Shown here in pieces: positions 3 through 39,949 of a stretch of 64,000 nt of DNA. The notes below the pieces were generated by a model that was not told the DNA's origin, did no database searches, and was given only the letters and a program-made list of their open reading frames with translations. Positions within the stretch are counted from its first letter, which is position 1; every line of letters begins with the position of its first letter. Location of the stretch: NCBI RefSeq assembly GCF_013315695.1, contig NZ_CP054353.1. One strand, 5' to 3'. The stretch comes from Escherichia coli. GTDB lineage: Bacteria; Pseudomonadota; Gammaproteobacteria; Enterobacterales; Enterobacteriaceae. The translations under genes were made by a program, and so were the position numbers.

Positions 3-585
3 CGTAATCATCTGGAAAACGTAGCCAACGCGCTCGATAAGCATTTGCAGTATAACGTCGACAAACTGATCTTTTTGCGTAATGGCATGCGCGAAGCTCT
101 CGTGGCGCCACTGGATTTCACCTCTCTGCGTAATGCCGTAACCGAGTTCGAACAGCATCGCGACGAGCACACCTGGCAAATCGAACTCAACCGACGGCGC
201 ACCCTGCCAGTCAATGGCGTATCGGATGCATTAGTCAGCGAGGGGAATCTCCTGTCTCGCGAAAATGAAAGCCTCGACAATGAAATTACCGCTGCACTGG
301 AAGTTGGTTACTTGCTGCGACTGGCGCACAACTCCTCGTCGATGGTTGAACAGGCGGTGTATGTCTCGCGTGCTGGATTTTACGTTTCGACGCTGCCGAC
401 CTTGTTTACGCGCAATGTACCAACGCGTTATTACGGCTATGTCACCCAACCCTGGTTTATCGGCCATTCACAACGAGAAAATCGTCACCGCGCGGTACGC
501 TGGTTCACTTCGCAACCGGAACACGCCAGCAATACTGAACCGCAGGTTACCGTCAGTGTTCCGGTAGACAGTAATAACTACTGGT
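3..585 (+). pseudogene. dgcQ: dgcQ (yedQ) diguanylate cyclase, 5' fragment interrupted by prophage insertion; gene start lies upstream of window
   Basis: Frame from position 3 reads [28 protein letters not shown]...VDSNNYW, matching the periplasmic N-terminal region of E. coli DgcQ as I recall it; reading frame leaves host sequence after NNYW and stops 13 codons later in phage DNA (track ORF 45..626). Confidence 0.85.
580..585. repeat. Left copy of 6-bp target-site duplication ACTGGT
   Basis: ACTGGT at 580..585 is repeated at 38077..38082; joining the flanks restores an uninterrupted dgcQ frame (..[11 protein letters not shown]..). Confidence 0.7.
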
Positions 586-631
586 TGATCAGACATGAGA
601 TAAATGAAGGGGGATCCGTGAGATAAATAAC
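586..631. repeat. Left terminal inverted repeat with two GAGATAAAT motifs (candidate transposase binding sites)
   Basis: tgatcagacatGAGATAAATGaagggggatccgtGAGATAAATA; reverse complement of the right end reads tgatgcgccgcGCGATAAATGcactctatcttgtGCGATAAATG, with motifs at the same offsets (11 and 34). Confidence 0.65.
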
Positions 632-946
632 GAATTGGAGTGGGTTAACATGGGTTCTGGTGAACAGAACTGAAATTCTTTTCCGCTATACGATAGATAA
701 GTCGGGCATTGAAATCATCCTTCCTGGCAACTTAGAATCGAGTTTGCTGAAACATGACCCGTAACAAAAAGGATGATTCCAATGACTACTCAAAACAATA
801 AGCATGACAGCCTGGATTACTCAGAAAAGCCCAAAAGCAAGCACATTGTGACGTTCGAGCGCGATTCCGGTAGAAAAGGAGAATCGTCTTCCTCTGCCAA
901 TAAAACCACTATGCCGGCAGCTCCTGCTCCAGGGAAAAAATAAACA

Positions 947-1657
947 TCATTCATCGTTCGTTGCACGAACGCGCCTGATCTCCACTCTGGCAATCTGATC
1001 TGCTGGAATATAGGTTGCCAGAGCTCCCCAGTACTTATCAACCACGCCTTTATACTCTTCCCATTCGTTACTTCCTGAAGGGCTGCTGTGCGTGACGTAA
1101 AGAACCATATCGCCTTTATTTCCCAGGGTAAACGGACCGTTAGGCCACTCTTCAAAGTTCCCTGGCAGCCGTGACATCATACCGGAACCATCGCGAAGAA
1201 TCACTCTGACCTCGGTGACGCTGAAGCCTGTTTGATCAAACATTGCCTGCCATGCTGAGCTGGTATTGTCAGACCATGAAATATCATTATTCCACAGTAA
1301 TCTGTACATCCATTTGCGACCGTACCTGCGCCACCACGCACCGCATGTAACGGCACACAGAAGTGCTGGGGGGGTTGCCAGCCAGGCATTCAGACCTGCC
1401 CACATAACAGCCTGGTAAGCCATCATTGCTGTCAGGCCAAAAATCAGCGAAGAAAAAGTCACCTCAATGGGTTTGTGGTGATCCTTCAGCCCCACATTCG
1501 CAATAAAATACCCAATATAGCCACTGGTCAGGGTCACCAGTGTTGCCCATGGCAGATTTAATAACGAAACGTCAAACATATTTTCTCCCGGCATCCTGAA
1601 TATTACATAGAGAGCATAAAAAAAGCACGGTAAAGGGTCTACCGTGCTCTTATACAA
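947..1657 (-). CDS. Hypothetical membrane protein (three predicted hydrophobic helices plus ~120 aa soluble C-terminal domain); last gene before the left prophage end
   Basis: Track ORF 236 aa; hydrophobic segments LPWATLVTLTSGYIGYFIANV, VTFSSLIFGLTAMMAYQAVMWAGL, ALLCAVTCGAWW; real start may be the internal Met (MFDVSLL). No family recognised. Confidence 0.5.
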   Translation of the reverse strand: MYKSTVDPLPCFFYALYVIFRMPGENMFDVSLLNLPWATLVTLTSGYIGYFIANVGLKDHHKPIEVTFSSLIFGLTAMMAYQAVMWAGLNAWLATPPALLCAVTCGAWWRRYGRKWMYRLLWNNDISWSDNTSSAWQAMFDQTGFSVTEVRVILRDGSGMMSRLPGNFEEWPNGPFTLGNKGDMVLYVTHSSPSGSNEWEEYKGVVDKYWGALATYIPADQIARVEIRRVRATNDE

Positions 1658-1693
1658 TAAGGAGATTTTTGAAAGGACTTTAACAAGCAGGAA

Positions 1694-2092
1694 TTATCTG
1701 GATTTGTTAACGTCTTTCGTCTCCTCTGGCAGATCTTCATCAAACAACCTGCCCTGCATCCGATCCAGTTCTTCTTTTCTGACCCGCTTAACCACGCTGT
1801 AGACCCACTGAAGCGAAACACCAAAATTGCGGGCCAGTTCGTGGTGGTTGCGTCCGTTAAACTCCCTGAAGATTTCCCGGTCGCGCTGACTGACCTTCCA
1901 TACCATGCCCATCGGGAAATAAACGTTTTGCCCGCCCCAGACCTGCATCATTCGGTTCGCGACGGCCTGACCAATCTGGTCGGCAATTGCGGGCTCAATA
2001 TCAATAATCTCGCGAACGGTCTCAGAGGTATGCTGTGCCAGTTCCACCAGGAGTTCCGGCCCTTTACTTCGAAACTGATTCAGGTCGCTCAT
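1694..2092 (-). CDS. mor: Mor/C-family transcriptional activator (middle operon regulator-like)
   Basis: 132 aa; resembles phage Mu Mor as recalled (..HHELARNFGVSLQWVYSVVKR.. C-terminal HTH); sits after the GemA-like gene as in Mu. Confidence 0.75.
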   Translation of the reverse strand: MSDLNQFRSKGPELLVELAQHTSETVREIIDIEPAIADQIGQAVANRMMQVWGGQNVYFPMGMVWKVSQRDREIFREFNGRNHHELARNFGVSLQWVYSVVKRVRKEELDRMQGRLFDEDLPEETKDVNKSR

Positions 2093-2555
2093 GTTTTACT
2101 CCCGCAGCTCTGCGCTGCCACTTCTTCAGTTTCTCAATAACACTGCTTGCCTGTTCAGTATTGAGCCAGCGCAGGGCGCTGATGCCCGTTTCCCGCTTGA
2201 TCCACCGCGCTAATGCATTTTCTGAACGGTCACGAACAATGCCGGCAGCAGCCATTTCAAGCCATAGCGCACGGATTTTCCTGGACTGCGGATGGTTATC
2301 CAGCGGTAAACCGGAGCTGGCTTTTCTGGCAGGCTTAACGCGAAAGCCTTTCCTTTTCATGGATTCCAGCACGCAGTTTAGTTGTGTGGTATCCATTCCT
2401 TTGGTTGAGGCTTTACCGGTCAGCCCCTGTAACATCTGGCGGTAGGTGTCTTCATCCATACCCAGTTCATTACGGGCAATATGAATGAGCTGGATAAGAC
2501 GTTGTTTAGTCATCATCGTTGCTCCTTTTACCTGCGCCACCGATATAATCGACAT
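2064..2555 (-). CDS. GemA-like protein (Mu gp16 family)
   Basis: 163 aa ORF directly upstream of the mor-like gene on the same strand; sequence resembles Mu GemA/gp16-type proteins as recalled. Confidence 0.6.
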   Translation of the reverse strand: MSIISVAQVKGATMMTKQRLIQLIHIARNELGMDEDTYRQMLQGLTGKASTKGMDTTQLNCVLESMKRKGFRVKPARKASSGLPLDNHPQSRKIRALWLEMAAAGIVRDRSENALARWIKRETGISALRWLNTEQASSVIEKLKKWQRRAAGVKHERPESVSK

Positions 2556-36842: not shown

Positions 36843-37354
36843 TAAACTGCCCTCACAATGTAATTAAGTGCAATGCTACGGGGTCTGACAGTGATACCCT
36901 TCGCATACCCGCTTCTGATAGAGGTCAGAATAGTAGCCTGCATACCATTGTCTGACATTGCCATGACAGGATCGCTGAATGTTGTCCCGTCCGGCATTTT
37001 AAAGCTGCCCTCACGAAGGTCTGTAATGGAATCTTCATTGTTGAATCCCATGCCGACTATCCCCGAGGTTCCCGTAGTGTCCTGGTTATAATAATCCAGC
37101 ATTGCTGTTCTTAACAGCGTTGCCCCTTGTGCGGACAGCAACTTACGTCCTGTATCAACTTTGCGCCCGTCGTCCCATCCACGGATAAACTCACCGCGTA
37201 AATCGGGAAGACGGAGGGTCGGGTAGACTCTGGCCAGAACAGGATATTGTTCTTTTGTAAAGGCGCGCCCGTCGCACTTTAACCAGCCTGCTGGCGGTGT
37301 GGCGGTGGGCCACGGAACCGGTACACCAACAGGCAATGCAGAGCCTTCCCCCAA
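36842..37354 (-). CDS. Alternative tail fibre C-terminal domain (silent in this orientation)
   Basis: 170 aa beginning MGEGSALPVGVPVPWPTATPPAGWL, nearly identical to the segment of the expressed fibre encoded by the left inverted repeat; both variants end NYIVRA(A/V). Confidence 0.7.
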   Translation of the reverse strand: MGEGSALPVGVPVPWPTATPPAGWLKCDGRAFTKEQYPVLARVYPTLRLPDLRGEFIRGWDDGRKVDTGRKLLSAQGATLLRTAMLDYYNQDTTGTSGIVGMGFNNEDSITDLREGSFKMPDGTTFSDPVMAMSDNGMQATILTSIRSGYAKGITVRPRSIALNYIVRAV

Positions 37355-37359
37355 ACCAA
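37280..37359. repeat. Right inverted repeat of the invertible tail-fibre segment
   Basis: Reverse complement of 35755..35834, one mismatch near the inner end. Confidence 0.8.
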
Positions 37360-37425
37360 CGTTTATCTCTCAAATCCTCCCCACATTATCTCAGTACTTT
37401 AACCACTCAAAAGGGAGTATTTTTA

Positions 37426-37998
37426 ATGCTGATTGGCTACATACGTGTGTCAACAAATGACCAAAACACAGATTTGCAACGCAAAGCATTAATGTGCGCA
37501 GGATGTGAACAGATTTTTGAGGACAAAATGAGCGGAACCAAGTCGGAACGTCCAGGCCTGAAACGCGCTTTAAAGTGCCTTAAAAGAGGGGATACATTGG
37601 TGGTCTGGAAGCTGGATCGGTTGGGTAGAAGAATGAAACACCTCATTGCTCTCACAGAAGAGCTACGCGCAAAAGGTGTCAATTTTCGCAGTCTGACGGA
37701 TTCAATCGATACCAGCACTCCGATGGGAAGGTTCTTTTTTCATATGATGGGTGCACTGGCAGAAATGGAGCGTGAACTGATAGTTGAGCGCACGCTGGCA
37801 GGACTGGCTGCTGCGCGAGCACAAGGGAGAGTTGGAGGACGTCGCCCGAAACTGACGAAGGAGCAGCATGAGCAGATCGCAAGATTGCTCCAGAAAGGGT
37901 ATGACAGAAAGCGGCTGGCAATTATCTATGATATTGGACTGTCAACGATCTACCGCTACCACCCTGTTGGGACTGTCATAACGCAACCTGAAATGTAA
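37426..37998 (+). CDS. gin: Gin/Pin/Hin-family DNA invertase (serine recombinase)
   Basis: 190 aa from ATG 37426 (RBS aagggag); N-terminal MLIGYIRVSTNDQ with catalytic Ser, C-terminal HTH; adjacent to the inverted repeats. Track ORF extends to 37297. Confidence 0.85.
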   Translation: MLIGYIRVSTNDQNTDLQRKALMCAGCEQIFEDKMSGTKSERPGLKRALKCLKRGDTLVVWKLDRLGRRMKHLIALTEELRAKGVNFRSLTDSIDTSTPMGRFFFHMMGALAEMERELIVERTLAGLAAARAQGRVGGRRPKLTKEQHEQIARLLQKGYDRKRLAIIYDIGLSTIYRYHPVGTVITQPEM

Positions 37999-38030
37999 TT
38001 CTTTTTCAAATAATGAAACGCCGCGTGGAT

Positions 38031-38076
38031 GCCATTTATCGCACAAGATAGAGTGCATTTATCGCGCGGCGCATCA
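38031..38076. repeat. Right terminal inverted repeat with two GATAAATG motifs
   Basis: Reverse complement tgatgcgccgcGCGATAAATGcactctatcttgtGCGATAAATG mirrors the left end. Confidence 0.65.

Positions 38077-39949
<1,873 letters not shown>

Follow-up and report, generated by a model that had tools for sequence, protein, structure and literature searches.

A BcepMu/phiE255-type transposable prophage in dgcQ of Escherichia coli, flanked by a 6-bp target duplication

The window analysed here is a 64,000-nt stretch of Escherichia coli contig NZ_CP054353.1 (assembly GCF_013315695.1), in which dgcQ, a diguanylate cyclase gene whose product carries the annotation of a cellulose synthesis regulator, is interrupted by a prophage. 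Judged by its sequence, the element belongs to the transposable prophages of BcepMu/phiE255 type and is not Mu proper, and we consider it very probable that a transposable myovirus of this type entered the dgcQ gene of an ancestor, at about codon 250, by DDE transposition through the mechanism proposed below. The insertion is precise to the base, its target duplication has the same length, 6 bp, in every independent two-ended copy examined, and the conserved ends of the element are found at dozens of unrelated sites.

Junctions, target duplication and mode of entry

The left junction reads ...AATAACT-ACTGGT/TGATCAGACATGAG... (slash, edge of the element) and the right junction reads ...GCGGCGCATCA/ACTGGT-ATGGCG..., with the first base of the element at 586 and the last at 38076; read further, they are ...AATAACT ACTGGT / TGATCAGACATGAGATAAATG... 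and ...TTTATCGCGCGGCGCATCA / ACTGGT ATGGCGTGC.... The original prediction, made from the letters of this stretch, had dgcQ cut into a 5' part ending at 585 and a 3' part beginning at 38077 with ACTGGT at both junctions, which proved base-exact. It had also held that removing 586-38076 with one copy of ACTGGT would restore the gene, and splicing 1-585 to 38083 onward indeed gives a single open DgcQ frame identical (100%) to intact dgcQ. The check that it proposed, alignment of the fragments with an uninterrupted dgcQ, was run and gave a perfect match across the join: a 600-nt query over the rejoined gene matched annotated intact dgcQ of many genomes in one piece at 100.0% identity. The rejoined stretch is uninterrupted in 5356 of 5426 complete E. 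coli genomes, and the phage-dgcQ junction occurs in four of them (OZ547117, MSB1_4I (LR898874), OZ546925 and OZ546911). Furthermore, two human-gut metagenome contigs (L019, L022) carry the phage right end fused in identical form to the dgcQ 3' fragment, indicating that the lineage with the interrupted gene is also seen in metagenomic samples. Since the junction recurs in four complete genomes and two gut contigs, the split of dgcQ is real and no assembly artefact, and the insertion allele is a rare marker specific to a small lineage.

The length of the duplication was checked by fetching other copies of the element that have both ends. Direct repeats of 6 bp lie directly outside TGAT...ATCA in all five independent two-ended insertions, namely ACTGGT in dgcQ (this window), GCACAT in lom of a lambdoid prophage (IAI39 and CE10), GCAAAT in mdfA (A24), GCATAC in a lambdoid tail-fibre-assembly gene (KUEC74) and ACCAGC in rstB (M-17). 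The 6-bp duplication is thus a property of this phage family. The termini TGAT...ATCA are as originally predicted, and behind each of them stand two putative transposase-binding repeats at the same distances from the tip (Table 1); their pattern, GNGATAAAT, has five exact matches in the window, four of which are the end sites (two per end, inverted).

The left ends of close relatives adjoin more than 15 different genes, including ptsP, gudD, irp1, kefF, yodD, proP, yehQ, rstB, fadM, ybhJ and a fimbrial usher gene, and the distinct right-end flanks number 26, of which 21 came from metagenome contigs scanned for exact matches to the right end. Among these 26 target sites C stands at position 2 in 13 and G at position 5 in 13, and position 4 tends to be A or T, a weak and roughly symmetric preference (N-C-W-W-G-N) that ACTGGT fits. 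A strong target motif was considered while C stood at position 2 in the first five sites and was abandoned once this had shrunk to half of the 26. No integrase of the tyrosine or large-serine type is present among the 54 coding sequences (CDS) of the element, as predicted, and the serine recombinase near its right end is a Gin-type invertase. The DDE transposase and AAA+ ATPase named in the same prediction could both be recognized, the former by its rve core and the latter as a P-loop transposition ATPase encoded beside it. Given the TG..CA ends, the duplication of fixed length in five of five insertions, the lack of an integrase and the spread over dozens of unrelated sites, entry by DDE transposition with a 6-bp stagger is well supported, and the claim that the element had entered by transposition is borne out.

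Two other readings of the junctions have to be weighed against this evidence. According to one, the duplication would be a Mu-type 5 bp (ACTGG) and the sixth base, T, would be phage-borne or coincidental; a single insertion fits 5 bp plus a phage T equally well, and T occupied the sixth position in all of the first three insertions examined. However, a left-end search with five flank bases returned many copies that begin exactly at TGAT after a base other than T, and the duplications of KUEC74 and M-17 end in C. Because two of the five duplications end in C, the sixth base is host sequence, and the Mu-like parse, ruled out by these endings and by the non-T left flanks, retains next to no probability. 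According to the other, the element would have integrated site-specifically through its own serine recombinase, whose gene belongs to a recombinase family and lies only 78 bp from the right end. That recombinase, however, is a 190-aa invertase adjoining a segment with 229-nt inverted repeats that is seen both ways round, and the element occupies at least 26 unrelated sites with target duplications and no common attachment sequence among the 26 flanks, so that site-specific integration must be regarded as extremely improbable. DDE transposition remains the reading on which the following is built.

Following infection of the ancestral strain by the BcepMu/phiE255-type myovirus, the rve-type transposase would bind the two repeats of each end (core GNGATAAAT, 12-20 and 35-43 nt from the tips) and expose 3' ends at the terminal CA, while the product of the adjacent P-loop ATPase gene could act as the target-capture partner, a functional analogue of MuB. 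The 3' ends would then be joined to target phosphates 6 bp apart, and gap repair would yield the ACTGGT duplication. Lysogeny might be kept by the helix-turn-helix (HTH) repressor candidate that faces the leftward early operon; upon derepression the phage would replicate by transposition, Mor would turn on the rightward late genes and packaging would proceed by headful. In this scheme we infer the strand-transfer chemistry, the roles of ATPase and repressor, replicative transposition and headful packaging from Mu and BcepMu.

Gene content, prophage activity and the fate of DgcQ

The gene layout was taken from the annotation that RefSeq gives for the near-identical prophage of MSB1_4I, together with PHROG, Pfam and NCBIfam searches (Table 1). 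An early operon on the minus strand reads from about 10000 to the left end and comprises the genes for the Ner-like, HTH and DUF3102 proteins, transposase, ATPase, Gam, small open reading frames (ORFs), GemA and Mor, and the right arm on the plus strand carries the repressor candidate, the variable block, and the lysis, packaging and head, tail and fibre genes, followed by the invertible segment and the invertase. All 54 CDS translate without internal stops, and no pseudogene is annotated in the prophage of MSB1_4I; the prediction that all major modules look complete therefore holds for gene content as well as for open frames. A sequence search of the Protein Data Bank with transposase and ATPase returned no meaningful solved relative and no MuA or MuB structure.

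Table 1. Features of the dgcQ region and the inserted prophage (positions are those of the window; TM1 and TM2, first and second transmembrane segments)
Feature	Position	Strand	Remarks
dgcQ 5' fragment	1-585	+	TM1 and CHASE7 periplasmic sensor; cut after about codon 250
Target-site duplication, left copy	580-585		ACTGGT
BcepMu-like transposable prophage	586-38076		37,491 bp; termini TGAT...ATCA
Putative transposase-binding repeats, left end	597-605 and 620-628	+	GAGATAAAT; 12-20 and 35-43 nt from tip
53-aa ORF, left-end cargo	782-943	+	
210-aa membrane protein, left-end cargo	947-1579	-	phrog_12870
Mor-type late activator	1694-2092	-	
GemA/gp16	2064-2513	-	
Gam-like host-nuclease inhibitor	4715-5245	-	
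Transposition ATPase, 388 aa, ExeA-family P-loop	5545-6711	-	phrog_296 'DNA transposition protein'; P-loop family matches
DDE transposase, 589 aa, rve core	6722-8491	-	Pfam rve; phrog_310 'transposase'
DUF3102 protein	8495-9409	-	promoter-proximal early operon
HTH regulator	9420-9728	-	promoter-proximal early operon
Ner-like DNA-binding protein	9781-9969	-	promoter-proximal early operon
XRE-type HTH repressor candidate	10020-10481	+	divergent from early operon
Variable accessory block	10478-12650		328-aa membrane, 193-aa membrane and 158-aa P-loop protein (minus strand)
Lysis cassette	12781-14508	+	holin, SLT-type endolysin, Rz-like spanin
Packaging and head	15145-22261	+	TerS, TerL, portal, MuF-like, MuG-like, protease/scaffold, major capsid protein
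Contractile tail and P2-like baseplate	23762-34434	+	sheath, tube, chaperone, tape measure, gpU/X/D/V/W/J/I homologues
Tail fibre, current orientation	34437-36221	+	
Invertible tail-fibre segment	35752-37362		1.6 kb; 229-nt inverted repeats 35752-35980 and 37134-37362
Gin-type serine DNA invertase, 190 aa	37426-37998	+	phrog_125, E 3e-94
Putative transposase-binding repeats, right end	38057-38065 and 38034-38042	-	GCGATAAAT; 12-20 and 35-43 nt from tip
Target-site duplication, right copy	38077-38082		ACTGGT
dgcQ 3' fragment	38077-39026	+	remaining periplasmic region, TM2, GGDEF domain

The insertion point separates the two functional parts of DgcQ, since Pfam places CHASE7 upstream of it and GGDEF downstream. 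About 165 nt of the gene precede the window, and the frame of the 5' fragment continues for 13 codons into the phage to a stop at 624-626; the 3' fragment is severed from its own promoter, start codon and first membrane segment, and both halves are annotated as pseudogene fragments in MSB1_4I. Because the insertion parts TM1 and CHASE7 from TM2 and GGDEF, the cyclase should be inactive, and loss of function is the expected outcome. Phages of this transposable type rarely excise precisely, so the lesion should also be heritable and stable. A literature search found no paper on a prophage in dgcQ.

Comparison of lysogens that share the dgcQ junction provides evidence on the activity of the phage itself. 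MSB1_4I and the window have the tail-fibre segment in opposite orientations, whereas OZ546911 agrees with the window; MSB1_4I is otherwise near-identical, with 4 SNPs (single-nucleotide polymorphisms) in the first 35.8 kb. As the segment has flipped between lysogens with the same junction, the invertase has acted since insertion. Furthermore, the KUEC74 copy is 99.95% identical over 34.8 kb and lies at another locus with another duplication. This near-identical copy elsewhere, the flipped fibre segment and the openness of every gene together argue for recent activity, and it is plausible that the prophage is inducible.

The tail-fibre gene contains a 168-bp (56-codon) tandem repeat in 5.5 copies of 92% identity (34665-35585), and its length differs among copies, being 1617 nt in KUEC74, 1785 nt in the window and 2061 nt in IAI39, a variation that would be consistent with a change in repeat copy number. 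The prophage of IAI39 and CE10, which lies within lom of a lambdoid prophage and is hence a prophage inside a prophage, has gained an extra IS3 in CE10.

None of the evidence contradicts transposition, but our account has some weak points, which are best considered along with two further alternatives concerning host and phage. The insertion might have rewired DgcQ rather than abolished it, if read-through from the invertase gene (gin) led to expression of a sensor-less TM2-GGDEF fragment from a GTG at 38088 or an ATG at 38097; were this true, cyclase output would follow prophage transcription in place of the CHASE7 sensor. gin runs in the same direction as the 3' fragment and stops 78 bp short of the junction, an in-frame ORF of 312 codons spans TM2 and GGDEF, and no terminator-like site was found on the plus strand at 37200-38400, which covers the stretch between gin and the 3' fragment, and some transcription of the latter could occur. 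Nevertheless, gin closes with a stop codon, hence no translational fusion would arise, no convincing ribosome-binding site precedes either candidate start (as judged by eye, with no dedicated tool), and a fragment without TM1 would probably misinsert. Expression of a truncated cyclase is therefore unlikely, and a rewired DgcQ seems to us an improbable outcome.

The other alternative deserves more weight, although we still think it the less probable one. The prophage might be complete on paper but cryptic in this strain, being non-inducible or yielding non-infective particles, and would then amount to a stable dgcQ insertional mutation only. In the orientation of the window the sole fibre-assembly gene (36228-36842) is opposite in strand to the fibre gene, and this could affect the infectivity of the particles. 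The copies in IAI39 and CE10 are decaying, being interrupted by four internal stops that affect the DUF3486/TerS and gpW genes among others, and IS3, ISEc23 and group II intron insertions are likewise gained by related copies; since some relatives decay in this way, intact ORFs are no guarantee of activity. It also remains a weak point of the comparison with BcepMu that a literature search found no published duplication length for BcepMu, nor for B3. On the other side, all 54 CDS are open here, the KUEC74 copy lies in an unrelated genome, the invertase has been active since insertion, a genome 97% identical has been deposited as a phage record (PhiKM), and Bcepmuvirus-type phages are among the induced prophages of gut Pseudomonadota (PMC12629997). 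On balance, a prophage that transposed into dgcQ and may still be inducible is the reading we prefer.

Variable cargo, host neighbourhood and implications

The cargo of the element is concentrated in two spots. The left-end block (586-1735), with the 53-aa ORF and the 210-aa protein, is missing in most relatives, and the sequence of the 210-aa protein suggests a membrane protein with three helices. In the block next to the repressor candidate, the 328-aa protein has a sub-threshold Flk-like N-terminus (NCBIfam) and the 193-aa membrane protein is glycine-rich. PADLOC gave no credible defence-system match for the cargo genes. A 145-bp relic of the phage left end (window 595-739) is carried at about 90% identity by about 105 large plasmids of the avian pathogenic E. 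coli (APEC)/ColV type, in plasmid p1ColV5155 at L035 4001-4144. The relic keeps both GAGATAAAT repeats, has lost the first 9 nt and adjoins a truncated LysR gene and IS3/IS1 debris, and it resembles the scar that an old insertion by a related phage would leave.

To the right of the prophage, a 768-bp insertion sequence, IS1 (41754-42521), stands between yedK (42717-43385) and a 90-nt fliR remnant (41668-41757) next to rcsA. The flagellar genes fliE-fliQ, which in the K-12 order lie between yedK and rcsA, are missing from the stretch 41668-43385. Because this IS1 has no flanking duplication, an IS1-mediated adjacent deletion of the flagellar genes is suggested, and the strain is probably non-motile. 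Of the four genomes with the dgcQ insertion, two (OZ547117 and MSB1_4I) have the identical IS1 junction, which was found in no others. In the host DNA that follows the prophage on its right (26 kb), MSB1_4I differs from the window only by two single-base mismatches and by an indel in fliD, where 75 bp are missing relative to the window (48628-48693).

The findings leave the present understanding of transposable phages unchanged, and their main value lies in annotation and strain biology. A common E. coli prophage would be better labelled as BcepMu-type transposable, with 6-bp duplications, than as 'Mu', and the conserved ends allow its exact boundaries (TGAT...ATCA) to be called. The phage inactivates the gene in which it lands as Mu does, here dgcQ and elsewhere ptsP, rstB, mdfA, irp1, proP and others. 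In this lineage the dgcQ insertion and the loss of fliE-fliQ represent two motility/biofilm lesions within about 4 kb of host sequence. Beyond that, the BcepMu-type transposase/ATPase pair could offer a second phage transposition machinery to be dissected in E. coli alongside that of Mu.

Relation to PhiKM, BcepMu, Mu and the B3 group

The closest phage record is PhiKM (PQ738613), which comes from uropathogenic E. coli and is placed in the genus Bcepmuvirus in GenBank; it is 97.4% identical in nucleotide sequence over 83% of window positions 586-25000, has the same gene order and encodes a transposase 99% identical to that of the element. The left-end cargo (586-1735) and the repressor-adjacent block differ, the latter being replaced in both PhiKM and M-17 by a DNA adenine methylase gene and other genes. 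A literature search found no paper on PhiKM. At least 80% of window positions 586-25000 is present in 596 of the 5426 complete E. coli genomes (about 11%), such as IAI39, CE10 and isolates of sequence type 131 (ST131), and such prophages receive the PHASTER label 'Burkho_phiE255'. Bcepmuvirus-type prophages with fibre-segment rearrangement or switching by a phage invertase have been described in ST131 wound isolates (bioRxiv 10.1101/2022.05.07.487787). The type of element is thus already known, being common, deposited and annotated, and the insertion is real but ordinary.

Among characterized phages, BcepMu and phiE255 share with the element the leftward early operon, Mor, GemA, the SLT endolysin, Mu-like head genes and a P2-like contractile tail, and their transposases, with an rve core of 'Tn552/IS1604' type, are 68-69% identical to that of the element. 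In BcepMu, collinear homologues exist for 36 of the 54 CDS at 31-75% amino acid identity, gp09 being 68% identical to the transposase and gp08 59% to the ATPase, and the ends are built in the same way, with a TGA(T/A) start and GNGATA(A/T)(A/T)T at 12-20 and 35-43 nt of each tip. A paper on KS10 (PMC2628397) describes the BcepMu group by its TG...CA termini and by an rve core akin to Tn552. The differences are that BcepMu carries an acyltransferase where the element has the invertible fibre segment with its Gin-type invertase, that the element also has Gam, and that it lacks homologues of BcepMu gp03-07. At the nucleotide level, blastn aligns only 10,249 of the 37,491 nt of the element (27%) with BcepMu, at about 68% identity. 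By ICTV convention, the genus-level cut-off is about 70% nucleotide similarity over the genome. Whatever the GenBank label, the low aligned fraction and identity would make the element a family-level relative of BcepMu and, by this rule, no member of the same genus.

With Mu the element shares TG..CA ends, a DDE transposase with an ATPase partner, Gam, GemA, late activators of the Mor/C type, the portal and the F and G head proteins, an invertible fibre segment with Gin at the right end, and near-random insertion that knocks out host genes. Mu, however, makes a 5-bp duplication instead of 6 bp and has a rightward early operon, whereas that of the element is inverted; unlike Mu, the element has a P2-like tail and baseplate and no mom/com genes. 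Mu was not returned by megablast against phage records, nor among the matches listed in a tblastn search with the transposase, whose sequence is unrelated to that of MuA and in which Pfam detects only the rve core. The B3 group (B3, JBD25, JBD67 and others) has transposases about 56% identical to that of the element and, by megablast against phage records, no nucleotide similarity to it except a short gam stretch. Phages of the B3 group are siphoviruses, whereas the element has a contractile tail and virion genes that differ from theirs. They nevertheless resemble it in organization, having an early operon inverted relative to that of Mu and transposition proteins unlike those of Mu (PMC5977238).

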